Assembly: GCA_964643135.1 (NCBI GenBank)
Contig: CAZXPC010000001.1
Coordinates: 39,726-103,725, forward strand
DNA from: an uncultured Candidatus Saccharibacteria bacterium
GTDB lineage: Bacteria > Patescibacteriota > Minisyncoccia > UBA6257 > Colwellbacteraceae
Reading direction: 5' to 3'
DNA: 64,000 nucleotides
Within the stretch, counting starts at the first letter, position 1; each line of letters starts with the position of its first letter. The notes beneath the pieces are model-generated. The model was not told the DNA's origin and did no database searches. It saw nothing but the letters and a program-made list of their open reading frames with translations. Of this stretch, positions 2,151-56,339 are shown in pieces. Both the position numbers and the translations under genes were made by a program.

Positions 2151-3920
2151 TTAACCGTATCTTTCGCGGTCGTCGGTGTCATCATCGTCTTCAACTTTCA
2201 GGCTGTTTTTTAAGGTTGCGGCGAGGGAATCTGCGTTCTCTTCTTCGGAATTCTTGATGTGGTGCTTCGTCTCTTCATGAGGCTTAAGGTCCGATAAGGA
2301 AATTGTTTTTTCGGTTGAAACCGGCCGGGCGCCCGGGCGCTCATGCCGGCGTTCTTCCGGTTTTTTCTTCTTAGCATCAAATTCGATGCCAAGATTGGCG
2401 AGATCGGCGATATATTCGTTGGCCGCGGCGGCTCTCGGGGCAGGCCTGTTGAAGACGCTTGTTTTTGCCGAAGGTGCGCCCTTGGCCCCTCCGCCGCTCG
2501 ATGGCTGCCGTGCCGGCGCCGGTTTTTCTTGTTCCGCGCTGACCCGGCCAGCCCATTCGTTGATCTCTCTTTCGACTGAATCGCGGGAACGGCCGTAAAG
2601 CTTGCGGGATGATTCAATGATCTTTTCCTTCATGCCTTCTGAGGCAGGGAGCTCGATAGGCGGCAGAGTGTGCGCCGAAAACGGCCGGCTCGTGATGCCG
2701 TCGATCATAAGTTTTATATAAATAGAATAATTAGGTAGATTGACGATATCTTGAATGGTGAATTCAGGAGTAAATTCATTTTCGAGGAACTCGGCGTCAG
2801 CGGCGCCAACGCGGAAAACGACCATGGTGCCGACGTTGCCGAAAACGGCATCGCGGACCTTAGTCGAACCTCCGCCTCCAGCCGAAGAAACTGATGTAAT
2901 GAGCTGGCCGGTATACTGATGGGCGAGCGTCAAGTTGAGCCGGTACTTGCGGGCCTCCGACAGAATGTTGGAGAACGAGTCGGTGGCAAAGTTCTGGAAT
3001 TCATCTACATACAAGAAAAAGTCTTTCCGGTCGGCTTCGGGAATGCGGACGCGTTCCATGGCTGAAAGCTGAATTTTAGTGATGAACATGGCGCCCAGGA
3101 GAGCTGAGTTGTCTTCGCCGATTCTGCCTTTTGAAACGTTCAGAAGGAGGATCTTTTTATTGTTCATCAGATCGAAGATGTCGATGGTGCTCTTTTGCTG
3201 GCCGACGACGTTTCGGATGATGTTGGTCGATAGGAACTGTCCGACTTTGTTCTGAATCGGGGCGATAGCCTCGCTCCGGAATTTATCCTGCCAGCCTTCG
3301 TATTCGTGAATCCAGAAAGCCCTGACTACCGGGTCTTTAACGTTGGAGATTATTTTTTGGCGGTAGCTTTTGTCCACCAAGAGCCGCGGGATGCCGAGCA
3401 GAGTTGTATCCGGAGTGTCGAGCAGAGCGAGAATAGCGTTATTCAAAATATATTCCATACGGGCCGACCAGGCGTTCGACCAGATCTTGGTAAAGATGCC
3501 CATCAGGCCCGAAGCGACCAGATGCTTGTATTTAGGGTCCGGTAACTCCAAAACATTGAAGCCGATGTGATAGTCGGTATCAGCGGGGTTAAAGTAGATT
3601 ACGTCCTGGAGGCGGTGGGCGGGAATTTGGTTTAAGAGGTCTTCGACGAACTCGCCGTGGGGATCGACCACACACAGGCCGTCGCCGTTCGTAACGTCTT
3701 GGATCGCCAGGTTTTTAAGGAGGACGCTCTTACCGGTGCCGGTTTTACCGATCACATACATGTGTTGTCGGCGGTCTTTTCTTTTAATGCCGAAGAGCTT
3801 GTCATGATTCCGGAAGTTAGTCGTGCCGAAAAAAACGACATCAGGTTTCTTACCTAGGAAATCCTGAGCTTTCTTTTCTTCGGTCTTTTTCTTATCCGGG
3901 GCGTGGCTTCCGTGGCTCAT
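2151..3920 (-). CDS. Type IV secretion/conjugation coupling-protein-like ATPase (TraD/TraG/VirD4/TrwB family), with low-complexity acidic C-terminal tail
   Basis: Walker A VIGKTGTGKS. Walker B/DExx-like FFLYVDEFQNF. RKYRLNLTLAHQ motif typical of TrwB/TraD family. C-terminal Gly/Pro/Ala-rich linker and EDDDDTDD tail. Confidence 0.7.
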   Translation of the reverse strand: MSHGSHAPDKKKTEEKKAQDFLGKKPDVVFFGTTNFRNHDKLFGIKRKDRRQHMYVIGKTGTGKSVLLKNLAIQDVTNGDGLCVVDPHGEFVEDLLNQIPAHRLQDVIYFNPADTDYHIGFNVLELPDPKYKHLVASGLMGIFTKIWSNAWSARMEYILNNAILALLDTPDTTLLGIPRLLVDKSYRQKIISNVKDPVVRAFWIHEYEGWQDKFRSEAIAPIQNKVGQFLSTNIIRNVVGQQKSTIDIFDLMNNKKILLLNVSKGRIGEDNSALLGAMFITKIQLSAMERVRIPEADRKDFFLYVDEFQNFATDSFSNILSEARKYRLNLTLAHQYTGQLITSVSSAGGGGSTKVRDAVFGNVGTMVVFRVGAADAEFLENEFTPEFTIQDIVNLPNYSIYIKLMIDGITSRPFSAHTLPPIELPASEGMKEKIIESSRKLYGRSRDSVEREINEWAGRVSAEQEKPAPARQPSSGGGAKGAPSAKTSVFNRPAPRAAAANEYIADLANLGIEFDAKKKKPEERRHERPGARPVSTEKTISLSDLKPHEETKHHIKNSEEENADSLAATLKNSLKVEDDDDTDDRERYG

Positions 3921-4012
3921 AGATATTGCTTATTGGCTAATAAGTAAGATAGCATAAAAATAGGAGATTGAAAATTTGATTTTTTCCGGGACTTCAGGCT
4001 AATATTAACGGC

Positions 4013-4582
4013 ATGTCATTGGCGTATAACGAACTAAAACCGGGAACTTTTTTGGATATCGACGGCGAACCGTGGGAAGTCTTGGAATTCGCCTTTTTAA
4101 GGATGCAGCAGAGAAAGCCGGTGGCCAAGACTAAGCTTAGAAACTTAGTGACTGGCCGCGTGATGGAGCAGACTTTTCATCAGAGCGACAAGATTGAAGA
4201 GGCTGATTTGCAGAAAGAAGACATCAAGTTTATCTACGCTAATAGAGGAGAGTTTTGGTTTACGGCGCCCAACGACCCGTCTAAGAGATTTTCCCTCCCG
4301 GAGAAGAAGATTGTCGGTAAATCGGAATTCTTAAAGCCCAATATGATCTTAATTGCGCTCAAGTTCGGCGATGATGTCGTTGAAGTTAAGATGCCGATTA
4401 AGGTTGAGTACAAAGTTATCGAAGCTCCGCCGGCGATTAAGGGCAACACAGCTCAGGGCGGCAATAAATCGGTTACGATCGAGGGCGGCGGCAAAGTTTT
4501 AACTCCGCTTTTTGTGAATGAAGGAGACATAATTCGAGTTAACACCGAAACCGGCGACTACGTTGAACGCGTCAACGCCTAA
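4013..4582 (+). CDS. efp: Elongation factor P
   Basis: 189 aa. N-terminal NELKPGTFLDIDGEPWEVLEF and KPG...KTKLRNLVTG..MEQTF pattern of EF-P. Length is typical. Confidence 0.9.
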   Translation: MSLAYNELKPGTFLDIDGEPWEVLEFAFLRMQQRKPVAKTKLRNLVTGRVMEQTFHQSDKIEEADLQKEDIKFIYANRGEFWFTAPNDPSKRFSLPEKKIVGKSEFLKPNMILIALKFGDDVVEVKMPIKVEYKVIEAPPAIKGNTAQGGNKSVTIEGGGKVLTPLFVNEGDIIRVNTETGDYVERVNA

Positions 4583-4629
4583 AAGCTGATCAGGCCACAC
4601 TCATCCACAGGCGGTCAAGTTGTATCTGT

Positions 4630-4648
4630 ATAGCATATGTGCTATATT
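4630..4648 (+). promoter_or_regulatory. 19-nt motif ATAGCATATGTGCTATATT (inverted arms ATAGCA-N4-TGCTAT fused to a TATATT -10-like box). An identical copy lies upstream of the HTH-murA gene at about 47332-47350 on the other strand.
   Basis: Exact 19/19 identity between the two sites in the same gene-relative orientation. Here it is preceded by TTGTAT at -35 spacing (17 nt) and sits about 37 nt upstream of the glmS ATG. Confidence 0.55.
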
Positions 4649-4685
4649 CGTCTTAAGAGGTTAACTAAAAATAAATTTTCTAGAA

Positions 4686-6527
4686 ATGTGCGGAATTGTC
4701 GGCTATACCGGTAAGAGAAAACCACTACAAGTCCTTGTCGACGGTTTGCGAAGCCTTGAGTATCGCGGTTATGATTCCGCCGGTGTCTCGTTCTGGGACG
4801 GAGAGAAAATAAAAACTATAAAAAAAGCCGGCCGGTTAGACAACTTGGTCGGACTTTTAACGGGCGAAGTGGATTACCCCGACCAGGCGGCGATTGGCCA
4901 CACGCGCTGGGCTACCCACGGCGAACCAAATGATGTGAATGCCCACCCGCATTTTGACTGCCATGAAGAAATTTCTTTGGCCCATAACGGCATTATCGAG
5001 AACTACAAGATTCTGAAGTCTAAGCTCGAGAAGAGGGGCCACAAATTTAAATCTCAGACCGACACCGAAGTCATTACCCACTTAATTGAAGAGGAATTTA
5101 AGAACCCGAAGAACGACACCTCCGAAAAGGCGATTCTGAGTTCGGTTAAGAAATTACGGGGAGCTTTTTCATTGGTCATCTTGATCAGGAGAGAGCCCAA
5201 TAAACTTTTTGCGATTAGGAACTTCAGTCCGCTCATTTTGGGCATCGGTACCGATGAATATATTATTGCCTCAGATCCGACGCCGATTATAAAATACACC
5301 AAGCAGATCATATATATGAATGACGGTGATATGGCAGTCGTCACTCCCGCGGGTTATGAATTTATTGACTTCCGCCACCAGTCTTTGAATAAAGATGTGA
5401 GCGAGATTGACTGGACTGTGGAAGAGGCGGAGAAGAGTGGCCATGAACATTTTTCGATGAAAGAGATTATGGAACAGCCCGAAGTGATCGAAAACGTTTT
5501 ACGAGGCCGGCTCTTAGTCGAGGAAGGGCGAGCTAAATTGGGCGGCCTGGACTCTGTCCAAGAGAAATTGAGAAATATTAAACGTATTATTATCACCGCT
5601 TGCGGTACGGCTGGTTTTGCCGGCAATGTCGGAGAATACATGATCGAAGAGTATGCCGGGATTCCGGTTGAAGTTGATTTGGCTTCGGAATTTAGATATC
5701 GAAAGCCGATTATTGACCCAGACACCGCTGTTATCTGCGTTTCCCAGTCCGGGGAGACGGCTGATACGCTGGCGGCCTTGCGCGAATCGAAAGAGAAGGG
5801 GGCGCTGACCTTGGGAGTCGTGAATGTCGTTGGCTCTTCAATTGCTCGTGACAGCCATGCCGGGGTTTATACGCACGCGGGTCCCGAAAAATCGGTGGCT
5901 TCGTACAAGGCGTTTACTTCACAGCTGACGGCTATGGCGCTCTACACATTATTTTTGGGCAGACAGCGAGGTATGTCGGTTGTGACTGGCAAGCGAATCG
6001 CCGAAGAGCTGAAACTGATCCCGGACCTAATGCGCGAAGTATTAAAACAATCTGATGAAATTAAAGATATAGCTAAGAGATATAAAGATTTCAATAACTT
6101 CCTATATGTCGGACGGAAATATAATTATCCGATTGCTTACGAAGGCGCGTTGAAGATGAAAGAGGTCTCGTATGCGCACGCCGAGGGCTACAGCTCGGCC
6201 GAAATGAAACACGGCCCGATCGCGATGATCGATAAAGATTTTCCGACCGTAGCAATTATTCCCAAAGACAGCGTTTACGAAAAGAATTTTTCAAATTTGC
6301 AGGAAATTAAAGCCCGAAGCGGCCCGATTATCGCGATTGCGACTAAGGGCGACAAAGATATCAGGCATATTACGAAAGATGTGATTTTTATACCCAAGAC
6401 TTTGGAAATGCTAACTCCGCTTTTGTCAGTGATTCCGCTCCAGCTTTTTGCTTACCACTCAGGTGTGGCGCGCGGAAGAGACGTTGATAGGCCGCGAAAC
6501 TTGGCAAAGTCGGTTACGGTGGAGTAA
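4686..6527 (+). CDS. glmS: Glutamine--fructose-6-phosphate aminotransferase (isomerizing)
   Basis: 613 aa. N-terminal MCGIVGY Ntn-amidotransferase start. Two SIS domains (VSQSGETADT). C-terminal ...VDRPRNLAKSVTVE. Confidence 0.95.
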   Translation: MCGIVGYTGKRKPLQVLVDGLRSLEYRGYDSAGVSFWDGEKIKTIKKAGRLDNLVGLLTGEVDYPDQAAIGHTRWATHGEPNDVNAHPHFDCHEEISLAHNGIIENYKILKSKLEKRGHKFKSQTDTEVITHLIEEEFKNPKNDTSEKAILSSVKKLRGAFSLVILIRREPNKLFAIRNFSPLILGIGTDEYIIASDPTPIIKYTKQIIYMNDGDMAVVTPAGYEFIDFRHQSLNKDVSEIDWTVEEAEKSGHEHFSMKEIMEQPEVIENVLRGRLLVEEGRAKLGGLDSVQEKLRNIKRIIITACGTAGFAGNVGEYMIEEYAGIPVEVDLASEFRYRKPIIDPDTAVICVSQSGETADTLAALRESKEKGALTLGVVNVVGSSIARDSHAGVYTHAGPEKSVASYKAFTSQLTAMALYTLFLGRQRGMSVVTGKRIAEELKLIPDLMREVLKQSDEIKDIAKRYKDFNNFLYVGRKYNYPIAYEGALKMKEVSYAHAEGYSSAEMKHGPIAMIDKDFPTVAIIPKDSVYEKNFSNLQEIKARSGPIIAIATKGDKDIRHITKDVIFIPKTLEMLTPLLSVIPLQLFAYHSGVARGRDVDRPRNLAKSVTVE

Positions 6528-9857: not shown

Positions 9858-10499
9858 ATGAAGATCAGATCAGTTGCGCTGACGGCTCTGTTGGCGCTGA
9901 CGATGACGACGCTCATCTGGCCCGCGAACTTGGCGAGCGGCGAAGGCAACTCGACGGCTGGCCAGACGCATACAGGCCACATGAGTGGCACGAACGTGAT
10001 GACTGACCTGCAGCTGCAGGCGATGAACGAAGCCAGACTCGCTACGATCCAGAAGCCCAGCTCGTCTGATTCGGCTCAGGGAGTGCCCGTGGCCGATCTG
10101 CGGAAGGCAACTCAGCAGGACACCTGCGGATCGAAGATCAACCAGCCTGACGATCGGCTACCCCAGGGAGCTGGCCTCGTGAGTAGCAGTAAGGGCTACA
10201 AGGCGGGCGAGCGGACCGCGTGGATGACGATTCCCGAAGGGATGAATCTCTATGCTACGGCTCTCGACAAGCCGTTCTGGATGTTCAGCCGCTACAGCGA
10301 GGAGAGCGTTCTTCCAAACGGCGGACGCAGCTACCAAGACGGCTTCCAGTACAGCCCATGCCATGGTTGGTCCTGGCAGTGGGTTGCGGCCGGCTGGACT
10401 CACCAGATCTACCTGCAGGCTGCCGAGAACAACACGAACTTCTATGTCGTTCTCGTCCCTGATCAACAAGGTACGTGCAGTAACGATTGCGGTGGCTGA
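9858..10499 (+). CDS. GC-rich island gene G1: secreted protein of unknown function (signal peptide, several Cys)
   Basis: N-terminal MKIRSVALTALLALTMTTLIWPANLASG signal peptide. Codons are strongly GC3-biased (cgc/gcg/ctg/acg), unlike the backbone. Own promoter-like TTGACG-17-TACGAT at about 9770-9798. Hairpin plus CTCTTTTTT terminator at about 10536-10578. Confidence 0.6.
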   Translation: MKIRSVALTALLALTMTTLIWPANLASGEGNSTAGQTHTGHMSGTNVMTDLQLQAMNEARLATIQKPSSSDSAQGVPVADLRKATQQDTCGSKINQPDDRLPQGAGLVSSSKGYKAGERTAWMTIPEGMNLYATALDKPFWMFSRYSEESVLPNGGRSYQDGFQYSPCHGWSWQWVAAGWTHQIYLQAAENNTNFYVVLVPDQQGTCSNDCGG

Positions 10500-25507: not shown

Positions 25508-25927
25508 ATGCCAACAATTTCACAACTCGTAAAACGAAAAAGGACTAATCCTTCCAAAAAGGACAAGAGTCCGGCTTTGGGTTACTACTTTAACGTTATT
25601 CAAAACAAACCAGTTTATTCAGTTTCGCCGTTTAAGCGCGGCGTTTGCTTAAAGGTTTTTACCACCACACCAAAGAAACCGAACTCAGCGCTTCGTAAAG
25701 TTGCTCGTGTTCGCTTAACCAATGGCCAAGAAGTCACAGCTTATATTCCGGGCGAAGGCCACTCTTTGCAGGAGCACTCAGTCGTTATGATCCGCGGCGG
25801 TAGGGTTAAGGACTTGCCAGGCGTTCGATACCACATTGTTCGCGGCCGGCTCGACACGACCGGAGTAACGGACCGAAAACAGCAAAGGTCAAAATATGGC
25901 GCCAAGACGCCTAAGGCTAAAGCCTAA
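25508..25927 (+). CDS. rpsL: 30S ribosomal protein S12
   Basis: [11 protein letters not shown] ... [17 protein letters not shown] ... [29 protein letters not shown]. Confidence 0.95.
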
Positions 25928-26016
25928 CCAATAACAAATAACCAATAACTCATAACAAATAACAGGAATGCATTTGTATCCCGTTATAAGTCATCAGTTA
26001 TAAGTAATAAGTTAAA
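25928..26016 (+). repeat. AATAAC/GTTAT imperfect-palindrome element copy 1 (subtype A, AATGCATT core) between rpsL and rpsG
   Basis: Left arm ccaataacaaataaccaataactcataacaaataacag. Centre gaatgcatttgtatccc. Right arm gttataagtcatcagttataagtaataagttaa, ending 4 nt before ATG. Confidence 0.7.
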
Positions 26017-26019
26017 AAT

Positions 26020-26505
26020 ATGAGAAAGAAACGTAATTATGCGAGAGTAAGGCGGCCGGATGTTAAGTATCAAGATGTAGCTTTGGCCCGCTTCATTAAC
26101 AAAATGATGTACGACGGCAAGAAATCAACCGCTGAACAAGTTGTCTACGGCGCTTTGGACATTGTCGCCAAAGAAACCAAGAAGGACGCCCTGGTTGTTT
26201 TCACAACTGCCATGGAGAATGCCTCGCCGCTAGTAGAAACCGTTTCGCGAAGAGTTGGCGGCGCTAACTATCAGATTCCTGAAGAAGTCCGCCCAGCCCG
26301 CAAATTTATCTTATCTTCAAGGTGGATTATCGAAGCTACCCGCGGCAAGAAGGGTAAGCCAACGGCTGAGAAGCTTGCTGAGGAATTGATGGCCGCTTTC
26401 AAGAACGAAGGCGCCGCAATCAAGAAGAAGCTTGATGTTCACAGGATGGCCGAAGCCAACCGCGCTTTTGCCCACTTTGCCCGCAAGAGAACTCCAACGA
26501 GCTAA
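26020..26505 (+). CDS. rpsG: 30S ribosomal protein S7
   Basis: RRPDVKYQDVALARFINKMMYDGKKSTAEQVVYGA ... typical S7. 161 aa. Confidence 0.9.
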   Translation: MRKKRNYARVRRPDVKYQDVALARFINKMMYDGKKSTAEQVVYGALDIVAKETKKDALVVFTTAMENASPLVETVSRRVGGANYQIPEEVRPARKFILSSRWIIEATRGKKGKPTAEKLAEELMAAFKNEGAAIKKKLDVHRMAEANRAFAHFARKRTPTS

Positions 26506-26592
26506 CTAATAACAAATAACAAATAACTCATAACAAATAACAGAAATGCATTTGCATCCCGTTATAAGTTATCAGTAATAAGTAATAAGTTA
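26506..26592 (+). repeat. AATAAC/GTTAT imperfect-palindrome element copy 2 (subtype A) between rpsG and fusA
   Basis: taactaataacaaataacaaataactcataacaaataacag - aaatgcatttgcatccc - gttataagttatcagtaataagtaataagttaat, then ATG. The centre contains the perfect palindrome AAATGCATTT. Confidence 0.7.
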
Positions 26593-26594
26593 AT

Positions 26595-33291: not shown

Positions 33292-33312
33292 ACCCCTTAC
33301 GGGGTTTTTCTT
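33292..33312 (+). terminator. Leader hairpin ACCCC-TTAC-GGGGT followed by TTTTTCTTT: attenuator-like element between promoter and rplC
   Basis: Located about 35 nt downstream of the predicted TSS and upstream of the AATAAC element and rplC. Confidence 0.4.
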
Positions 33313-33321
33313 TATCAAGAA

Positions 33322-33406
33322 CAGATAACGCATAACTGATAACAAATAACAGAAAAGAAGCGAAAGCCAATTGTTATGAGTTATAAGTGATTAGTTATAA
33401 GTTAAA
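33322..33406 (+). repeat. AATAAC/GTTAT imperfect-palindrome element copy 3 upstream of rplC
   Basis: acagataacgcataactgataacaaataacag - aaaagaagcgaaagccaa - ttgttatgagttataagtgattagttataagttaaat, then ATG. Confidence 0.65.
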
Positions 33407-33409
33407 TTT

Positions 33410-33847
33410 ATGAAAGGACCATACGTCAAAGCCAAAAAGTTAACGATGAGCCAAATCTGGCAAAACAACCGCGTTGTTCCGGTAACTTATATTGAAATTT
33501 TGGATAAGCCCGAAGGATGGGATTTGAAGGTCGGTGATCTATTAAAAGTAACCGGTACAACTAAAGGTAAGGGTTTCCAAGGCGTAGTTAAGCGCCATGG
33601 CTTCGGCGGCGGTCCGTCGACTCATGGTCAAAAGAACCGGCAGAGAATGCCTGGTTCAATCGGTAATACGACTCCTCAGAGAGTGCTTCCAGGCCGCCGT
33701 ATGGCCGGACACATGGGCGTTGAAACTCACACTATCAAAAATGTAGTTTTGGTTGAATTGGCCGAAGACGGCAAGAAAGGGGCAGTTAAAGGCGCTATCC
33801 CGGGCTGGAGGAACAAGACTATTAAAATTCGCAAATCCCAGAGTTAA
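33410..33847 (+). CDS. rplC: 50S ribosomal protein L3 (short form, 145 aa)
   Basis: KGKGFQGVVKRHGFGGGPSTHGQ ... R.PGSIGNTTPQRVLPGRRMAGHMG. The internal region present in E. coli L3 is missing. Confidence 0.88.
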   Translation: MKGPYVKAKKLTMSQIWQNNRVVPVTYIEILDKPEGWDLKVGDLLKVTGTTKGKGFQGVVKRHGFGGGPSTHGQKNRQRMPGSIGNTTPQRVLPGRRMAGHMGVETHTIKNVVLVELAEDGKKGAVKGAIPGWRNKTIKIRKSQS

Positions 33848-36547: not shown

Positions 36548-37243
36548 ATGGCACGAAAAGTTAACCCAAATGTATTCAGGCTAGGCATTAATCGGACATG
36601 GGACTCCCGGTGGATTAACTTACGAAACATGAAAACGTGGCTCGCCGAAGATGAGGCTATTCGCGAGATCATTATGAAAAAGATCGGTTTGGCCGGCATC
36701 TCTAGAATCGAGATAGAGCGAACGGGGGACCGATATAAGATATTCATTAAGGCCGCCAAACCAGGTATTATTATCGGCCGCGGCGGCAAGGGTATCGAAG
36801 ACCTGACCAAGCTCCTCGAGAAATCGATCAAGGGACGCGTGGCTTTGAGCCTGAACGTTGAAGAATTGAAAAGGACCGAGGTGTCGTCATACGTTATTGC
36901 GCAGAACATTGCATGGGATTTGGAGAAGAGAATGAGGTACCGCCGGACGATCAAGAAGTATCTTGATATGGTTATGCAAAATCGAGACGCCAAGGGCTGC
37001 AAGATCGCTGTTTCAGGCAGGCTTGACGGCAATGAAATCGCGCGCGGCGAGCACTTGTCTAAGGGTAAATTGCCTTTGTCGACCTTACGAGCCAACATCG
37101 ATTACGGAACCGCTACGGCTATAACTGCCATGGGAACGATCGGTATTAAGGTTTGGATTTACAAGGGAGAAATCTTTGCTAAACAAATAACTGATAACAA
37201 ATCACGAATAACAAATACAAAAACAGAGAATCAGTCGTTATAA
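36548..37243 (+). CDS. rpsC: 30S ribosomal protein S3
   Basis: ARKVNPNVFRLGINRTWDSRW ... KH domain GIIIGRGGKGIEDL ... GRLDGNEIARGEHLSKGKLPLSTLRANIDYG. The 3' end runs into repeat element copy 4. Confidence 0.92.
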   Translation: MARKVNPNVFRLGINRTWDSRWINLRNMKTWLAEDEAIREIIMKKIGLAGISRIEIERTGDRYKIFIKAAKPGIIIGRGGKGIEDLTKLLEKSIKGRVALSLNVEELKRTEVSSYVIAQNIAWDLEKRMRYRRTIKKYLDMVMQNRDAKGCKIAVSGRLDGNEIARGEHLSKGKLPLSTLRANIDYGTATAITAMGTIGIKVWIYKGEIFAKQITDNKSRITNTKTENQSL

Positions 37244-37270
37244 GTTATCTGTTATAAGTAATAAGTTAAA
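37183..37270 (+). repeat. AATAAC/GTTAT imperfect-palindrome element copy 4 (overlaps rpsC 3' end, ends 5 nt before rplP ATG)
   Basis: aaacaaataactgataacaaatcacgaataacaaatacaaaaacagagaatcagtcgttataagttatctgttataagtaataagttaaa. Confidence 0.65.
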
Positions 37271-37275
37271 AAAAC

Positions 37276-37695
37276 ATGTTAGTCCCAAAGAAAGTAAAAC
37301 ACAGGAAGTGGCACAAAGGCCGATCGAAGTCGAGGCTTGTTGAAACACGCGGCACGAGCTTGGCTTACGGCAGCTACGGTTTGCAGGCCACTCAGCCTTT
37401 TTGGCTTAATTCCAGGCAGATCGAGGCGGGACGCCGAACGATCACCAACTTCGTTAAGCGCGGCGGCAAGATCTGGATTCGCGTTTTCCCGGATAAGCCG
37501 GTAACAAAAAAGCCGCCTGAAGTTACTTTGGGAGGAGGTAAGGGTGCGGTTGACCGATACGTTTTCCCGGTCCGACCAGGTAGAATAATTTTCGAAATGG
37601 ATGGAATTCCAGAAGAAACCGCCCGCGAGGCTTTGCGATTGGCCGGCCACAAGCTGCCTTTTACCACCAGGTTTGTTAAAAAGGGACAGTTGTAA
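37276..37695 (+). CDS. rplP: 50S ribosomal protein L16
   Basis: LVPKKVKHRKWHKGRSKS ... GSYGLQATQPFWLNSRQIEAGRRTIT ... KIWIRVFPDKPVTKKP. Confidence 0.93.
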   Translation: MLVPKKVKHRKWHKGRSKSRLVETRGTSLAYGSYGLQATQPFWLNSRQIEAGRRTITNFVKRGGKIWIRVFPDKPVTKKPPEVTLGGGKGAVDRYVFPVRPGRIIFEMDGIPEETAREALRLAGHKLPFTTRFVKKGQL

Positions 37696-38567: not shown

Positions 38568-38570
38568 GCG

Positions 38571-38662
38571 AAACAAATAACTAATAACCAATGACTAATA
38601 ACAGAAACACAATAAATCAGCCCAACCCCTTATTCGTTATGGGTTATAAGTTATAAGTTAAT
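38571..38662 (+). repeat. AATAAC/GTTAT imperfect-palindrome element copy 5 (subtype B) between rplN and rplX
   Basis: gaaacaaataactaataaccaatgactaataacagaaacacaataaatcagcccaaccccttattcgttatgggttataagttataagttaatt. Confidence 0.65.
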
Positions 38663-38666
38663 TCAC

Positions 38667-38972
38667 ATGAACATCCTAAAAGGCGACAAAGTAATGATCA
38701 TGAAAGGCAAGGATCGCGGCAAGTCCGGGAAGGTTCTTAGCGTTACGCCCGGCAATAATACCCTCGTCATCGAGAACCTGAACCTATACAAGAAATCGGT
38801 GAGGCCGAAAAAGCAGGGCGAGAAAGGCAGTATTATTGATTCGCCCCGGCCAGTCAGATTGGATAATGTCATGCTCGTTTGCTCTTCCTGCGGCAAGCCT
38901 GCTAGGACTGGCAGAAAGGTCAACAAGGATAAAAAAGAAAGATATTGTAAAAAATGCAACGCTATCGTTTAG
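38667..38972 (+). CDS. rplX: 50S ribosomal protein L24 (with C-terminal CxxC...CxxC zinc-ribbon-like tail)
   Basis: KGDKVMIMKGKDRGKSGKVLSV ... KOW motif. C-terminal CSSCGKPARTG...YCKKCN. Confidence 0.88.
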   Translation: MNILKGDKVMIMKGKDRGKSGKVLSVTPGNNTLVIENLNLYKKSVRPKKQGEKGSIIDSPRPVRLDNVMLVCSSCGKPARTGRKVNKDKKERYCKKCNAIV

Positions 38973-40093: not shown

Positions 40094-40651
40094 ATGTCAA
40101 AAATTGCTAAAAAACCAATAATTATCCCCGATGGCGTGACCGCTGTTTTGAAAGACCACATGGTGGAAATCAAGGGCAAGAACGCGACTTTGAACGTTCC
40201 TGTGCTGGAAGGCGTTAAGGTTGAGATTAAGGATAAGGCCATCACTCTTACCTCGGACAGGGCGACTAAGCAGGCCAGTTCAAACTGGGGCACAACCAGC
40301 GCGCACTTAAAGAACGCCATCGCAGGATCAAATGCGGATTTTGTTAAAGAGCTCTCGGTTGTCGGAATCGGTTTCAAGGCAGCGCTTGAGGCCAAGGACC
40401 TAGTTTTGAGCCTTGGGTTCAGCCACCCGGTGAGATTTGCTATTCCGGAAGGCGTTAAGATTACCGTTGAAAAGAACATTGTGAAGGTTGCCGGTCCGAA
40501 CCGATGGCTGGTCGGAGAGACGGCCGCCAGGATTCGTGATTTTAAGAGACCAGAGCCGTATCAGGGCAAGGGCATCCGCTACAAAGATGAGATCGTTAGG
40601 AAGAAAGCGGGTAAGAAAGCAGCGGCCGCAGCCGGTCCTGCCGCAAAATAA
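40094..40651 (+). CDS. rplF: 50S ribosomal protein L6
   Basis: SKIAKKPIIIPDGVTAVL ... two-domain L6 pattern ... PEPYQGKGIRYKDE. Ala-rich C-terminal tail. Confidence 0.9.
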   Translation: MSKIAKKPIIIPDGVTAVLKDHMVEIKGKNATLNVPVLEGVKVEIKDKAITLTSDRATKQASSNWGTTSAHLKNAIAGSNADFVKELSVVGIGFKAALEAKDLVLSLGFSHPVRFAIPEGVKITVEKNIVKVAGPNRWLVGETAARIRDFKRPEPYQGKGIRYKDEIVRKKAGKKAAAAAGPAAK

Positions 40652-40654
40652 CAT

Positions 40655-40746
40655 ATAACTCATAACCAATGACTAATAACAGAAAAACAAAAAATCAGTT
40701 TGAATCCCTATCCGTTATGGGTTATAAGTTATCAGTCATAAGTTAA
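40655..40746 (+). repeat. AATAAC/GTTAT imperfect-palindrome element copy 6 (subtype B) between rplF and rplR
   Basis: catataactcataaccaatgactaataacagaaaaacaaaaaatcagtttgaatccctatccgttatgggttataagttatcagtcataagttaatat. Confidence 0.65.
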
Positions 40747-40750
40747 TATC

Positions 40751-41092
40751 ATGCACGCAAAAACATTAAGGAAAATTAGGAAGGCGACCAGAAACAGAGC
40801 CAAAATTCACGGCACTGCGGCTTTGCCGAGGCTTTCGGTTTTCCGCAGCAACCGCTATTTGCGCGCTCAGCTAATTGACGACAACGGAGGCGTCACCATT
40901 ATCTCGGGCAGTACCGACAGCAAAGTTAAAGCCAACAAGACTAAGCAGGCTGAAAATTTAGGAGCGGTGATTGCTAAGGCCGCCAAGGAGAAGGGCATAG
41001 CTCAAGTTGTCTTTGACCGAGGATCATATAAATATCATGGTCGAGTAAAAGCTCTGGCGGAATCCCTCCGAGCCAACGGTATCAAAATCTAA
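40751..41092 (+). CDS. rplR: 50S ribosomal protein L18
   Basis: [29 protein letters not shown] ... [19 protein letters not shown]. Confidence 0.9.
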
Positions 41093-41188
41093 CTCATAAC
41101 TCATAACCAATGACTAATAACAAAAGCAAAAAACTGAATACATTAAGAATAACCGTTATGGGTTATAAGTTATCAGTTATAAGTTAAA
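41091..41188 (+). repeat. AATAAC/GTTAT imperfect-palindrome element copy 7 (subtype B) between rplR and rpsE
   Basis: taactcataactcataaccaatgactaataacaaaagcaaaaaactgaatacattaagaataaccgttatgggttataagttatcagttataagttaaatc. Confidence 0.65.
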
Positions 41189-41194
41189 TCTACT

Positions 41195-41710
41195 ATGGAA
41201 CCAAGAACAGCACATAGGTCTCGCATGCCGAATATCCAAAAGATCGACGAATTCAAGGATCGGGTCATTGACTTGCGCCGCGTTACCCGTGTGACCAAGG
41301 GCGGCAAGCGAATGCGTTTCAGAGCGACTGTCGTGATCGGCAACGGCAAGGGCAAAGTAGCCGTCGGAATCGCAAAGGGCGCTGACGTTATGGAAGCTAT
41401 CAGCAAAGCCAAATTCCAGGCCAAGAAAGACATTATTGAAGTTAAGATGGTGAAGAAGACTATTCCTCACGAGGTTGAGGCTAAGTTTAGCTCAGCTGTG
41501 ATTATGATTAAGCCGGCTTCGTCCGGACACGGTCTTATGGCCGGCGGAGCGCCCCGTGTGGTTTTGAGCATGGCTGGGATTCAGGACGTCACCGCGAAGT
41601 GTATCAGCCGGACTTCCAACAAACTGACTAATGCGATTGCCACTATCGAGGCCCTCAAGAAATTAAAGGACCCGAAACGGGCCAGGAAAGAGGAAGAGGC
41701 TAAAAAATAA
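41195..41710 (+). CDS. rpsE: 30S ribosomal protein S5
   Basis: IDLRRVTRVTKGGKRMRFRATVVIGNGKGKVAVGIAKGADVMEAISKA ... 171 aa. Confidence 0.93.
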   Translation: MEPRTAHRSRMPNIQKIDEFKDRVIDLRRVTRVTKGGKRMRFRATVVIGNGKGKVAVGIAKGADVMEAISKAKFQAKKDIIEVKMVKKTIPHEVEAKFSSAVIMIKPASSGHGLMAGGAPRVVLSMAGIQDVTAKCISRTSNKLTNAIATIEALKKLKDPKRARKEEEAKK

Positions 41711-44424: not shown

Positions 44425-45183
44425 ATGGCTTTGATAAAAACCGAAAAACAAATTGCTAATATCCGTGAGTCGGGGAAGATTTTGGGCTTGGTTTTGAGGA
44501 AACTCAGAAATGTAACCAAAGTCGGCGTGAGCCTGCTCGATCTCGATAAGTTTGCCCGCGAACTGATCGTGGAGCAGGGCGGGGAACCGGCTTTCTTGGG
44601 CTACCGACCCTACGGTGCCAAAACGGCTTATCCAGCGACTCTTTGCACTTCGGTTAATGATGTGATCGTTCACGGCCGGCCAACTAGCTACGTCCTGAAG
44701 TCCGGCGACGTGGTTAAGCTCGACCTGGGCGTGGTCTATAAAGGCGGCATAACCGATGCGGCTATAACTGTTGCGGTTGGGAAAGTTGATAAAGAAGCGC
44801 AAGACTTAATAAAAGTTACTGAAAACTCGTTAAGGGAAGCGATCAAATTTTGTTCGCCTAAGCATACTTTGGGAGACATCGGTTACGCGATTGAGAAAAC
44901 TGTTTCTGCTAAGAACTTTTTGATTGTTGAAGGGCTGACCGGCCATGGCGTTGGCGAAGAAATACATGAAGATCCATCCGTTTATAACTATGGCCACAAA
45001 GGGAGCGGTATGAAGCTTCAGCCAGGGATGGTTTTGGCAATTGAGCCGATGACCGCGATTGGCACATCTAAAATAATTCAGTTAAGAGATGACAGCTTCG
45101 CGACGGCTGACCAGAGCATGTCGGCGCACTTTGAACACACCGTGCTTATCACAGAGAAAGGCTGCGAAGTCTTAACTGCCTAG
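44425..45183 (+). CDS. map: Methionine aminopeptidase type I
   Basis: Metal ligands in VNDVIVHG, D..KLDLGVVYKGG, HGVGEEIHE and AIEPM...FEHTVLIT. A TATATAAT box lies 6 nt upstream of the ATG (leaderless-like). Confidence 0.92.
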   Translation: MALIKTEKQIANIRESGKILGLVLRKLRNVTKVGVSLLDLDKFARELIVEQGGEPAFLGYRPYGAKTAYPATLCTSVNDVIVHGRPTSYVLKSGDVVKLDLGVVYKGGITDAAITVAVGKVDKEAQDLIKVTENSLREAIKFCSPKHTLGDIGYAIEKTVSAKNFLIVEGLTGHGVGEEIHEDPSVYNYGHKGSGMKLQPGMVLAIEPMTAIGTSKIIQLRDDSFATADQSMSAHFEHTVLITEKGCEVLTA

Positions 45184-45788
45184 CGCTGATCCTTTCGGCG
45201 CGTTTCTAGGTGGGTTTCTTCGGGCTTTTCGATTTCCTCGATGATGGCCGCGGCCTCTTCTTTGGTTAGTCCGCCGGGTAGATTCATGTTGATAGCATCG
45301 GCAGGGTGCTGATAGTCTGGTTTGCTCTGCGGAATACTCTTAGGTATTTCACCTGTCTCGTCAGGGCGGATATCAAACTTCTCTTCGGCTTCTTTCTGAT
45401 TTTGCTTCAAGGCTGAAGCTTCAGCGTTGGTAAGGCCGCCAAAAGCGCCGGCCCCCTTCCCGAATCGGTCCCTAAGAGTCTTTGTCGCAAGCTCAATTCT
45501 GGTTTTTGTTTCTTCCTTGTCCTCGTTTTTGAGGTAGCCCATCGCTTCTTTTTCGGTGAAACCTTTGGGCAAGCCGGTGAATCTGGCTGTTTCCGCATCC
45601 ATTTTGGAGGATCCTATAATTGCCACTTTTTCCTCGCTCTTTCCTTTGTTGGCCGTAAATGAAGCAGCCTCCTTGGCTGTTAGACTTTCCGGCAAGCCGG
45701 TTTTTTTAGCAACCACCTTGCGTATTGGCTCCGGAGTTTCTCTATTCTGATTGTCGGCCGGATAAGAATTTGGGTTTTCTATTGACAT
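45180..45788 (-). CDS. Hypothetical protein with four TGLP/GGLT-x3-T.KEA repeats, charged and low-complexity
   Basis: Repeats TGLPESLTAKEAASF, TGLPKGFTEKEAMGY, GGLTNAEASALKQ and PGGLTKEEAAAIIEE. Convergent 4-nt overlap with map. Confidence 0.45.
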   Translation of the reverse strand: MSIENPNSYPADNQNRETPEPIRKVVAKKTGLPESLTAKEAASFTANKGKSEEKVAIIGSSKMDAETARFTGLPKGFTEKEAMGYLKNEDKEETKTRIELATKTLRDRFGKGAGAFGGLTNAEASALKQNQKEAEEKFDIRPDETGEIPKSIPQSKPDYQHPADAINMNLPGGLTKEEAAAIIEEIEKPEETHLETRRKDQR

Positions 45789-45824
45789 AAGTCTATTATC
45801 TCACAAATATCGCTAAATTTGAAG

Positions 45825-47333
45825 CTAGAAAGTTTTTATTTTGGCGCCGATGGAGTTCAACTTAGTGTGGATTTCTTCGTAGCCGCGGTTGATACTGTAG
45901 ACGTTGCGGAGAATCGAAGTGCCTTTGGCGGCCAGCATGCCCAAGAGAATTATGGCGGCCGGCCTTAGGGCGGGCGGGCAGACCACTTCGGCGGCTTTAA
46001 ACTCGATTGGTCCCACGATTTGCACCCGGTGCGGATCAATCAAATTGATATTGGCGCCGAGCTTTGTCATCTCAGTATAATAAATAGCGCGATTTTCGTA
46101 CACCCAGTCGTGGATCAGGGTCTGGCCTTCAGCTTTAGCCGCGATCGGCACAAAAAAAGGAAGGTTGTCGATATTAAGGCCCGGGTAGGGCGACGGGTGA
46201 ATCTTTTCTTCCAGGGCTTTCAGTTTGGAAGGATAGGTTTCGATATCAACGAGGTCGATCATGCCGTTCTCGCCTTTGTAGCGTTTGAGAATTTTATATT
46301 TAAAACCCATTTTTTCCATCTTTAAGAGCTCGAGAGCTAGGAAGTCGATCGGGCAGCGGAGAATCTTAATTGATGAGTTGGTGACGGCTGCGGCGGCGAG
46401 GTAGAGCATGCTGTCGATCGGGTCTTCGCTCACGGCGTACTCAACATCGCCGGCGATTTCCGGTTTGCCGTGAATCACCAGTTTGTGCGTACCGATGCCT
46501 TCGATTTTAACACCCAGTTTGACCAAGAAATAGCAAAGCTCCTGAACCATGTAGTTCGACGAGGCGAACTGGATGGTGGTTTTGCCCTTAAGTTTCGAAG
46601 CGGCCATGATGGCATTTTCCGTGGCGGTATCGCCGGATTCGTAGAGAACAATGTCGGCCGGTTTGAGTTTGCCGACCGAGACCCGGTAAACGTTATCTAG
46701 GGTTTCGATATTAACGCCAAGGTTTTCTAAAGCATACAGGTGCGGCCGAACAGTTCGCGAACCGAGCTTGCAGCCGCCGGCGTAAGGCAGGTCAAATTTC
46801 TTTAAGAGATGGATCAACGGACCCATGAGCATAATCACGGTCCGGGTTTTTAAAGCGGCTTGAATATTGATATCCTCGATCCTGATCTTAAGCGGGGGAG
46901 TGATTTGGAGAGTGTGGCGGTCCAGCCATTTGGTTTCAACGCCGATGCTGTTTAGTACTTCGACGATTCGGTTCACCTCTTCGATACGCGGCATATTTTT
47001 TAGAGTCGTCTTGTCCTTGTTTAAAAGCGCCGCGCAGAGAAGAACCATCGCGCCGTTCTTGGAAGAGTTGGTGGTAATCGTGCCGGATAAGGGGTGGCCG
47101 CCCTCAATTTGGAAATTCAAAGATTCAGGCAGGTTGATTAGCTGACGGTTAAGAACCTTGCTGATTTTGGAAAGCATTTCAGTCGTAAGATTCTGCTTGC
47201 CGGACTCGATCCGGGCGACGGCGCTTTGGGTGGTGTCTAAAAGCTTGGCTAAATCTTCCTGGGTCAGGCCCTTCTGGTCTCTAAGATCGGCGATAAATTT
47301 ACCTATTTTTTTAGGTGTGGACATGAGAGACAA
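45825..47333 (-). CDS. murA: UDP-N-acetylglucosamine 1-carboxyvinyltransferase fused to an N-terminal XRE-family helix-turn-helix domain
   Basis: N-terminal 60 aa KIGKFIADLRDQKGLTQEDLAKLLDTTQSAVARIESGKQNLTTEMLSKISKVL is a Cro/C1-type HTH. The remainder is MurA (KNGAMVLLCAALL; active-site Cys in LPYAGGCKLGSRTVRPHLYALENLG; C-terminal RGYEEIHTKLNSIGAKI). The true start is probably ATG at about 47324 (the track start is TTG). Confidence 0.85.
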   Translation of the reverse strand: MSLMSTPKKIGKFIADLRDQKGLTQEDLAKLLDTTQSAVARIESGKQNLTTEMLSKISKVLNRQLINLPESLNFQIEGGHPLSGTITTNSSKNGAMVLLCAALLNKDKTTLKNMPRIEEVNRIVEVLNSIGVETKWLDRHTLQITPPLKIRIEDINIQAALKTRTVIMLMGPLIHLLKKFDLPYAGGCKLGSRTVRPHLYALENLGVNIETLDNVYRVSVGKLKPADIVLYESGDTATENAIMAASKLKGKTTIQFASSNYMVQELCYFLVKLGVKIEGIGTHKLVIHGKPEIAGDVEYAVSEDPIDSMLYLAAAAVTNSSIKILRCPIDFLALELLKMEKMGFKYKILKRYKGENGMIDLVDIETYPSKLKALEEKIHPSPYPGLNIDNLPFFVPIAAKAEGQTLIHDWVYENRAIYYTEMTKLGANINLIDPHRVQIVGPIEFKAAEVVCPPALRPAAIILLGMLAAKGTSILRNVYSINRGYEEIHTKLNSIGAKIKTF

Positions 47334-47350
47334 TATAGCACATATGCTAT
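47332..47350 (-). promoter_or_regulatory. Second copy of the 19-nt ATAGCATATGTGCTATATT motif (read on minus strand), abutting the HTH-murA start
   Basis: The plus strand reads aatatagcacatatgctat, the exact reverse complement of the glmS-upstream motif at 4630-4648. Confidence 0.55.
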
Positions 47351-47375
47351 TAGTTGGGAAGAGGGCGCGGCCCGC

Positions 47376-55247: not shown

Positions 55248-55595
55248 CCCCACCTCCGAACTCGCTTCCACTCCTCGCCCGCCCTCATCCCATTCCGGGA
55301 AACACAATAAATCTCTGCTGAGATTTTTGTTTTTGCTCACCCGTCTACACGGGCTTGCGCAGATTCCCTTCATGGAACAAGGTCGGGCTTAGCATAGCCT
55401 AGCTTGAGTCTGTTCCGTTGAGGAGCCTCTCGCAGCCGTTCAATGCGGCGAGAAGAAGAAATTTCAGCAGAAATTATCTGTGGTGACGAAATGGAATAGC
55501 GAAAGCGAGGCTGTGCTTCTGAGGGGTAGATCGGATTTCGGAGGCGGGACAATTTGTTTTTCAAATTTAGCGATATTTGTGATATAGTGGAGTAA

Positions 55596-56339
55596 ATGAA
55601 GAAAATAGTTATTTTTTCTTTCCTTTTGCCGATCATCGCTTTCGTTTTTCTTTTTGTATTTAAAAATTATTTGCCGATTACCGGCGCAGCAGTTGAGCCG
55701 AATGTTTTGCATGGCTGGCTTTGGTCATCTAATATCGGTTGGATTAGCTTGAATTGCGATCACACTAACGACGGCACTAATCCCGCATATACTGAGTGCG
55801 GGTCAAGCGGCAACCCGCCGCAATATCAAGTCACACTCAATCCGTTCAGCGGAGCCTTTAGCGGTTATGCCTGGAATGGCAACGGCCCGGGTGCGAGAGC
55901 AGGGATTGGTTGGATACGCTTTGATCCACCGGGACCGTATCCGGAAAATCCTCAAATACCGGCGACTCTTAAGCAACTCGCGTCTGGGCGTTTCCAGGTA
56001 CAAGGCTGGGCTCGCGCCTGCGCTCCGGCGCAAGACCCGGTGGCCTGCTCAGGTTATGCCAATCCGGTTTCGCAAAACACCGGCGGGTGGGATGGCTGGA
56101 TAAAACTCTCCGGCTCGACGACCGATTGTCCGGCGCTCAAAGACTATAGCCCTAATCCGCCCGGCAAACCCTATGAAACGTGTCTTACTGCTGACGGCAA
56201 AAAACTTGAGGGCTGGGCGTGGGGAGGGGATACTATCGGCTGGATCGAATTCGACCCGAGTTTGAATTCGGTAGCCGTGCCGGTCGGATCAAGCCATATT
56301 TGCGAGGTCCGGCCAGGCTCAACCAAGTGTGCGAAATAA
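55596..56339 (+). CDS. Membrane-anchored/secreted Trp-Gly repeat protein (GW.W...IGWI.F repeats)
   Basis: N-terminal TM helix. Repeats HGWLWSSNIGWISL, GYAWNGNG..GIGWIRFDP, GGWDGWIKL and EGWAWGGDTIGWIEFDP. Several Cys. Confidence 0.55.
   Translation: MKKIVIFSFLLPIIAFVFLFVFKNYLPITGAAVEPNVLHGWLWSSNIGWISLNCDHTNDGTNPAYTECGSSGNPPQYQVTLNPFSGAFSGYAWNGNGPGARAGIGWIRFDPPGPYPENPQIPATLKQLASGRFQVQGWARACAPAQDPVACSGYANPVSQNTGGWDGWIKLSGSTTDCPALKDYSPNPPGKPYETCLTADGKKLEGWAWGGDTIGWIEFDPSLNSVAVPVGSSHICEVRPGSTKCAK

Follow-up and report, generated by a model that had tools for sequence, protein, structure and literature searches.

A palindromic motif at the promoters of glmS and an HTH-murA fusion gene as a predicted operator of a putative DNA-binding MurA in Patescibacteria

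Several metabolic enzymes also carry DNA-binding domains. In the trigger enzymes BirA, NadR, PutA and RbkR, an active metabolic enzyme is combined with a helix-turn-helix (HTH)-type domain, and palindromic operators are found on their own genes and on genes of their pathways. Here we describe a putative system of this type in a 64,000-nucleotide (nt) stretch of DNA (hereafter the window, whose own numbering is used throughout) from an uncultured Candidatus Saccharibacteria bacterium (GenBank assembly GCA_964643135.1, contig CAZXPC010000001.1, positions 39,726 to 103,725 of the forward strand). The window encodes a protein in which an XRE-type HTH domain is fused to MurA, the enzyme of the first committed step of cell-wall synthesis and the target of fosfomycin. 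A 19-nt palindromic motif occurs twice, in front of the fusion gene (HTH-murA) and in front of glmS. We consider it likely that this 19-mer is the operator of HTH-MurA itself, fused to an extended −10 element, through which the protein would repress its own gene and, in one clade, glmS. Presence and absence of the site, its rarity elsewhere, covariation with the protein and phylogenetic footprinting all support such a regulatory interpretation at the sequence level.

As in the described trigger enzymes, HTH-MurA unites an enzyme and a DNA-binding domain in one polypeptide, with predicted operators at its own and pathway genes. It differs from BirA, NadR, PutA and RbkR in that it has no sequence relationship to them, its enzyme is MurA, its HTH is of the XRE/Cro type (HTH_3) and its control by a ligand is only proposed. 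RbkR is an archaeal riboflavin kinase and regulator whose regulon was deduced by comparative genomics and whose DNA-binding domain has been lost in some lineages (PMC5397151). The operator of HTH-MurA is likewise predicted by comparative genomics, and its HTH is also absent in some lineages.

With the XRE/Cro-C1 repressors (434 Cro and repressor, SinR), HTH-MurA shares the HTH_3 domain, a recognition helix opened by Gln, a promoter-overlapping operator and regulation of its own gene (predicted in our case), as well as a 16-base-pair (bp) palindrome with half-sites one helical turn apart. The C-terminal partner in those repressors is a small dimerisation or sensor domain, whereas in HTH-MurA it is an enzyme of 430 residues. 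RodZ is also a cell-envelope protein with an N-terminal XRE-like HTH, but it has a transmembrane segment and its HTH binds a protein, MreB, whereas HTH-MurA is accompanied by a conserved, covarying DNA palindrome.

The known control of MurA is post-translational, and includes feedback by uridine diphosphate N-acetylmuramic acid (UDP-MurNAc) with formation of a dormant complex, activation by CwlM in mycobacteria and IreB/ReoM-type control in Firmicutes (PMC12077105). The same step is targeted here, but the proposed control is transcriptional. The glmS ribozyme of Gram-positives and the small RNAs GlmY/GlmZ of enterobacteria have a common aim with it, namely feedback on the first amino-sugar step. 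Those systems act on mRNA, whereas HTH-MurA would act at transcription initiation and would be an enzyme from further down the pathway. In the full-text literature searched, we found no description of the HTH-MurA fusion, its operator or transcriptional self-control by MurA. The first-pass annotation of the window, too, had noted the coupling as not known to have been described.

We observed exactly two copies of ATAGCATATGTGCTATATT in the window, at 4630–4648 (forward strand) and 47332–47350 (reverse strand). They are identical at 19/19 positions, and each faces its gene, the first glmS and the second HTH-murA. A third copy is absent from the window even at up to 3 mismatches, none is expected by chance (no match in 100 dinucleotide-preserving shuffles), and no second perfect long inverted pair of this kind is present there besides them (pair I15). 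Each copy has two 6-bp arms, ATAGCA and TGCTAT, on either side of 4 central nucleotides. Together with the ATT that follows it, the right arm makes up TGCTATATT, an extended −10 in which TATATT is preceded by TG. Thus, the identity and shared orientation of the copies, the inverted arms and the −10-like hexamer fused to them, all read from the letters in the first-pass annotation, hold; the range 4627–4650 given there for the first copy includes 3 and 2 flanking bases.

Copy 1 is located in the 103-nt spacer between efp (4013–4582, forward strand) and glmS (4686–6527, forward strand), the proposed second target, which encodes a glutamine--fructose-6-phosphate aminotransferase of 613 amino acids with GATase_6/7 and two SIS domains. 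The 3′ end of the copy is 37 nt from the glmS ATG at 4686. Its core, ATAGCA-TATG-TGCTAT (4630–4645), overlaps the extended −10 of glmS (TG 4640–4641, TATATT 4643–4648). A −35-like hexamer, TTGTAT, is present at 4620–4625 on the same strand. Its distance of 17 nt from TATATT is as initially noted, but the hexamer is weak: it agrees with TTGACA at 3/6 positions and was for this reason not called by the consensus promoter scan. In relatives, the −35-like position of the glmS promoter is occupied by TTGCTA or TTGCTG.

Copy 2 is located in a 51-nt spacer upstream of a 499-amino-acid open reading frame (ORF), on the reverse strand, and ends 7 nt from the ATG at 47324, in keeping with the leaderless-type arrangement suggested before. 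Its core (47335–47350) overlaps the extended −10 of HTH-murA (TATATT 47332–47337). The scan called this promoter as TTCCCA-17-TATATT with TG, the weak −35-like TTCCCA being at 47355–47360 (reverse strand), with a 17-nt separation from the −10. Both sites extend from the promoter spacer over the TG and into the −10, half of which they overlap.

The fusion gene itself (45825–47324, reverse strand) comprises 499 codons and a stop, starting from the ATG at 47324. A TTG at 47333, given as the start by the ORF finder, falls within the −10 and is probably not the true initiation codon. The XRE-type HTH occupies residues 1–62 (47139–47324), with helices at 3–17, 22–29, 33–40 and 48–58, and matches HTH_3 (PF01381) over residues 11–61 (E = 4.8e-16, 59 bits against a gathering cutoff of 23). 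Thr32 (codon 47229–47231) directly precedes the invariant Gln33, which opens the recognition helix. A search of the window ORFs with a profile of this HTH type found no second ORF of the kind, consistent with the initial view that the fusion holds its sole XRE-type HTH.

The MurA catalytic domain (residues 70–499; 45828–47117) retains the active-site Cys185 and other conserved residues. The Pfam model EPSP_synthase is matched by residues 74–489 over positions 2–417 of 417 (E = 6.6e-50), which indicates a full-length MurA. The ORF passes the NCBIfam cutoff of PRK09369 (333.3 bits, cutoff 297) and misses the equivalog cutoff of TIGR01072 (319.7 bits against 392.7); the MurA of the fusion is a divergent subfamily, as expected for Patescibacteria. 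The best matches in the PDB are all MurA, and none of these PDB relatives has an HTH. The loop GGC185KLGSR190 can be aligned with GGCAIGQR, its counterpart in solved MurA structures. Residues K89, N90, C185, R190, D386 and R454 are invariant across 44 fusion proteins and presumably correspond to K22, N23, C115, R120, D305 and R397 of E. coli MurA. In an AlphaFold2 model (mean predicted local distance difference test score 87.9), a four-helix HTH is followed by a confidently predicted MurA fold, and the linker between them, residues 59–67, has low confidence and is flexible.

The fusion is widespread. All of the 120 best MurA matches (62–85% identity) have it, and a junction-spanning search of a 50%-identity library matched about 100 representatives across the HTH-MurA junction, many of them fragments. 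Database sources label these proteins simply MurA. The nearest named GlmS relative comes from Candidatus Colwellbacteria (76% identity), which also provides a named MurA relative at 67%. These two relatives and the shared fusion of the best MurA matches place the organism among the Patescibacteria.

To compare fused and unfused genes, we turned to 80 genome loci with MurA relatives and examined the sequence preceding each start codon. Sites were scored at the 12 specified positions of ATAKCA-N4-TGMTAT, i.e., ATA(G/T)CA-N4-TG(C/A)TAT, with a threshold of at least 11/12. Within 100 nt of the start, 42 out of 56 HTH-fused murA genes, sampled from Patescibacteria and the actinobacterium Pseudactinotalea, carry a site, which is perfect in 32 cases. 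None of the 22 unfused genes reaches the threshold, let alone a perfect match (Fisher p = 2.7e-10 for fused versus unfused). Random 100-nt windows of the same loci yielded 7 sites in 4777, none of them perfect. The consensus across relatives is TATA(G/T)CA(T/C)AT(A/G)TG(C/A)TATAnT. A TATAnT −10 hexamer overlaps the right arm in 37 out of 43 sites, and in 25 out of 43 the core begins 25–29 nt before the ATG, which places the predicted transcription start at or beside the start codon.

The site also varies together with the protein. Thr at HTH residue 32 is found with ATAGCA/TGCTAT (27 genomes) and Ser with ATATCA/TGATAT (19 genomes), so that residue 32 pairs with operator position 4; there are no discordant pairs (Fisher p = 2.4e-13). 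The 4 remaining sites are asymmetric, and two of these, in loci L033 and L060, combine one G-type arm with one T-type arm. On a neighbour-joining tree built from the MurA domain alone, parsimony requires 4 changes of the residue, 4 of the base and 4 of the joint state, which means that each switch in the protein coincides with a switch in both half-sites. One sister pair may serve as an example: L003 has Thr and ATAGCATATACGCTAT, and L005 has Ser and ATATCATATACGATAT.

Such covariation is hard to explain with another protein binding the site. We therefore regard it as highly improbable that a separate, unlinked transcription factor recognizes the palindrome while the fused HTH serves, for example, a protein contact, as in RodZ-MreB. 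It is true that mreB adjoins murA in some relatives (L165, L174) and that an XRE-like HTH has been recruited for protein binding in RodZ. However, a separate factor would have to account for the lack of the palindrome at unfused murA genes and for a specificity base that switched with HTH residue 32 four independent times. The fused HTH is matched in Pfam by HTH_3, HTH_31 and HTH_19, with HTH_25 not among the matches at E ≤ 0.01, and a search up to 10 kb from unfused murA genes revealed no free-standing HTH gene of this type.

Two observations touch on the history of these sites. The hybrid operators of L033 (9933–9948, with Ser32) and L060 (9911–9926, with Thr32), each with one ATATCA-type and one ATAGCA-type arm, may be intermediates of a specificity switch. 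In L027, an unfused murA has a half-degenerate palindrome, ATACGGTATATGCTATAGT, just before its start (about 9960–9985), which could be a relic from the time before the HTH was lost.

Outside these promoters the palindrome is rare. The 2.0 Mb of related DNA that we fetched contains 39 perfect sites. Of these, 33 are found at promoters of HTH-murA, 5 belong to promoters of glmS or efp-glmS, and a single one lies elsewhere. The concern that the motif might precede many unrelated genes is not borne out in this DNA, where 38 out of 39 perfect sites are at murA or glmS. In the window, a search for ATAGCA-N4-TGCTAT at up to 2 mismatches otherwise gave just chance-level matches, inside genes. The remaining window promoters follow TTGACA-N17-TGGTATAAT without the left arm and have only the TGnTATAAT part in common with the site. 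A generic sigma-70 promoter element was rejected on account of this missing left arm together with the placement of the perfect sites.

Other candidates were examined and rejected. An RNA element is not indicated, as there is no Rfam match and the murA palindrome lies upstream of the predicted transcription start. The glmS ribozyme (RF00234) has no match at E ≤ 1 in 3900–4900, and Rfam over the whole window gave a single gathering-level match, one transfer RNA. A recurrent 11/12 match 500–1000 nt upstream of murA appears to be part of a coding region, that of the adjacent gene, which judging from its position is probably map. In L171, one perfect ATATCA-type site falls within a HAD-hydrolase gene upstream of mnmA; it was judged to be due to chance because the fusion of that genome is of the Thr32/ATAGCA type.

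The link to glmS was followed in relatives of the window. The sequence TATAGCATATATGCTATATT is found 57 nt before the glmS ATG in L161/L162 (P0122, GlmS identity 88%), 25 nt before it in L163 (P0123, 85%), in a leaderless-type position, and 107 nt before it in L172 (P0129, 63%). In L164 (P0124, 76%, Colwellbacteria), ATAGCATATGTGCTAT lies 31 nt before efp. Since efp and glmS abut there, the two genes would form one regulated unit. L164 and L165 are taken to be one genome, GCA_016176525.1, and the murA site of L165, ATAGCACATATGCTAT, is the reverse complement of the 16-nt core of the efp-glmS site in L164. When the efp-glmS spacer of the window is aligned with those of L161, L163 and L172, a single invariant block emerges, which is the operator with its −10. 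It spans 20 consecutive columns, or 21 columns with the preceding T, where one G/A column interrupts; otherwise only two isolated T columns and the ATG are invariant.

Co-occurrence of the fusion with a glmS motif had been suggested as a check. The motif is seen at glmS or efp-glmS in four relatives (63–88% GlmS identity) and is absent there in at least one genome with the fusion, GCA_964647045.1. The glmS link appears to be limited to a Colwellbacteria-like clade. The proposal that the predicted operator of the fusion sits on both its own promoter and glmS stands broadly for the first part (42/56 fused against 0/22 unfused genes) and in one clade only for the second. The two genes are not neighbours, as a search of the 80 genomes turned up no glmS less than 10 kb from murA.

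With such a restricted distribution, it might be argued that only the autoregulation is real and that the glmS copy is a recently copied or captured extended −10 promoter without special regulatory meaning. The identity of the two copies in the window extends to the −10 and to the centre TATG, which is not symmetric, as a recent copy would predict, and neither GCA_964647045.1 nor more distant genomes have the link. On the other hand, the site persists in front of glmS or efp-glmS in four more genomes, at varying distances from the gene and within fully diverged spacers. Moreover, HTH-MurA would in any case also bind a copied promoter that included the complete operator. On balance we find this explanation unlikely.

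A mechanism can be proposed in which HTH-MurA is a repressor. The fused XRE-type HTH, probably as a dimer, would bind ATA(G/T)CA-N4-TG(C/A)TAT, placing two HTH domains on half-sites with centres 10 bp apart. Since the extended −10, TGnTATAnT, includes the right arm TGCTAT, the bound protein should block RNA polymerase. The predicted outcome, presumably repression rather than activation, would be negative autoregulation of a largely leaderless murA transcript. In the Colwellbacteria-like clade, the same protein would also repress glmS or efp-glmS. One protein might then control entry into peptidoglycan synthesis, at its first committed step, as well as the supply of the UDP-N-acetylglucosamine (UDP-GlcNAc) precursor.

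The fusion protein could instead bind the site as an activator or a dual regulator, a reading we hold to be distinctly improbable. Poor −35 elements, as present at both promoters, are often seen where transcription depends on an activator. But extended −10 promoters work without a −35, and the site stretches from the spacer over the TG to the middle of the −10 hexamer, exactly where the sigma factor of RNA polymerase must bind.

The most speculative step concerns the signal. By analogy with BirA, NadR, PutA and RbkR, the open or closed state of the MurA domain, set by UDP-GlcNAc, phosphoenolpyruvate or the feedback inhibitor UDP-MurNAc, may modulate DNA binding. Co-repression of murA and glmS would be sensible if a downstream signal strengthened binding. 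A candidate for this role is UDP-MurNAc, whose complex with MurA is dormant and reversible (PMC12077105). Taken to its full extent, the proposal would be that HTH-MurA is an ancient metabolite-sensing trigger enzyme and the main transcriptional governor of peptidoglycan precursor flux in much of Patescibacteria (the candidate phyla radiation, CPR) and in some Actinobacteria. The state of its MurA domain would switch operator binding and so set its own level and, in some clades, that of glmS, with Ser or Thr at residue 32 reading T or G at position 4. We offer this wider model tentatively, as a possibility that we think has somewhat less in its favour than against it.

Several points weigh against the proposed repression of murA and glmS by HTH-MurA. 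MurA enzymes are usually monomers, whereas a dimeric HTH is proposed here. Among the fused genes, 14 out of 56 score below 11/12; these are mostly from Saccharimonadia, with degenerate sites, together with the actinobacterial ATCTCA-N4-TGAGAT. GCA_964647045.1 keeps the fusion and a perfect operator at murA (L173) and has no ATAGCA site at efp or glmS (L171), and P0125 and P0127 have only degenerate palindromes before efp. The palindrome was found within about 4 kb in 0 out of 76 metagenomic glmS loci (53–61% identity). A CPR-wide glmS link was rejected on this count, although the test is weak, as many of the loci may belong to lineages with unfused MurA, e.g., Moranbacteria. Finally, our view of the window's own genome is limited to 64 kb, and further targets are possible.

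If it is true that a DNA-binding MurA represses its own promoter and glmS, peptidoglycan precursor flux would be subject to a novel control logic. The HTH-MurA architecture is conserved over a very large and mostly uncultured share of bacterial diversity, in which few regulators are understood. The proposal lends itself to direct testing, as the sequence itself reveals the operator, specificity appears to depend on a single residue, and the fusion occurs with a matching palindrome in cultured Pseudactinotalea. Should the residue 32 code hold, the operator could be predicted from the protein sequence.

In Pseudactinotalea (L051, L053, L056, L058 and L059), the HTH-MurA fusion is full-length, with 52–53% identity, and its carriers include the cultured strains P. 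terrae KACC 16542 and P. suaedae KACC 17839. In all five genomes ATCTCA-GATC-TGAGAT, again with a 6-4-6 geometry, is positioned 30 nt ahead of the ATG. The site, ATATCTCAGATCTGAGATAT, is an AT-rich palindrome in DNA of about 70% GC (in L058 at 9938–9953, with the murA start at 9968). The GC content of the gene (0.69) matches that of the genome, which argues that the fusion was not acquired by recent transfer.

Next to efp-glmS, the window encodes a TraG/VirD4-like type IV coupling ATPase (TrwB_AAD_bind, DUF87; 2151–3920, reverse strand). It is a conserved neighbour of these genes in the clade, being also present in L161, L164, L167, L170 and L172, and in several relatives a DUF8128 protein is encoded alongside.

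Two further groups of shared elements were observed in the window. The first is a family of intergenic elements of about 90 nt in the ribosomal-protein region, at 25922–26015, 26502–26593, 33309–33421, 37178–37285, 38568–38677, 40646–40762 and 41087–41203. They consist of runs of a 7-nt unit, NATAACN, followed by complementary GTTATNA runs, and end just before a start codon. The copy at 25920–26018 forms a long imperfect hairpin (−14.7 kcal/mol, z = −3.65).

The second is a 32-nt upstream element at 45792–45823 (reverse strand) and 55560–55591 (forward strand), with 91% identity between the copies (TTCAAATTTAGCGATATTTGTGA.ATA...). It precedes an ORF of 202 amino acids just downstream of murA (45180–45788, no Pfam match) and one of 247 amino acids (55596–56339). 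The two encoded proteins are not similar and their genes are unrelated. The element itself resembles a TTCAAA-N17-TATAGT promoter with TG.
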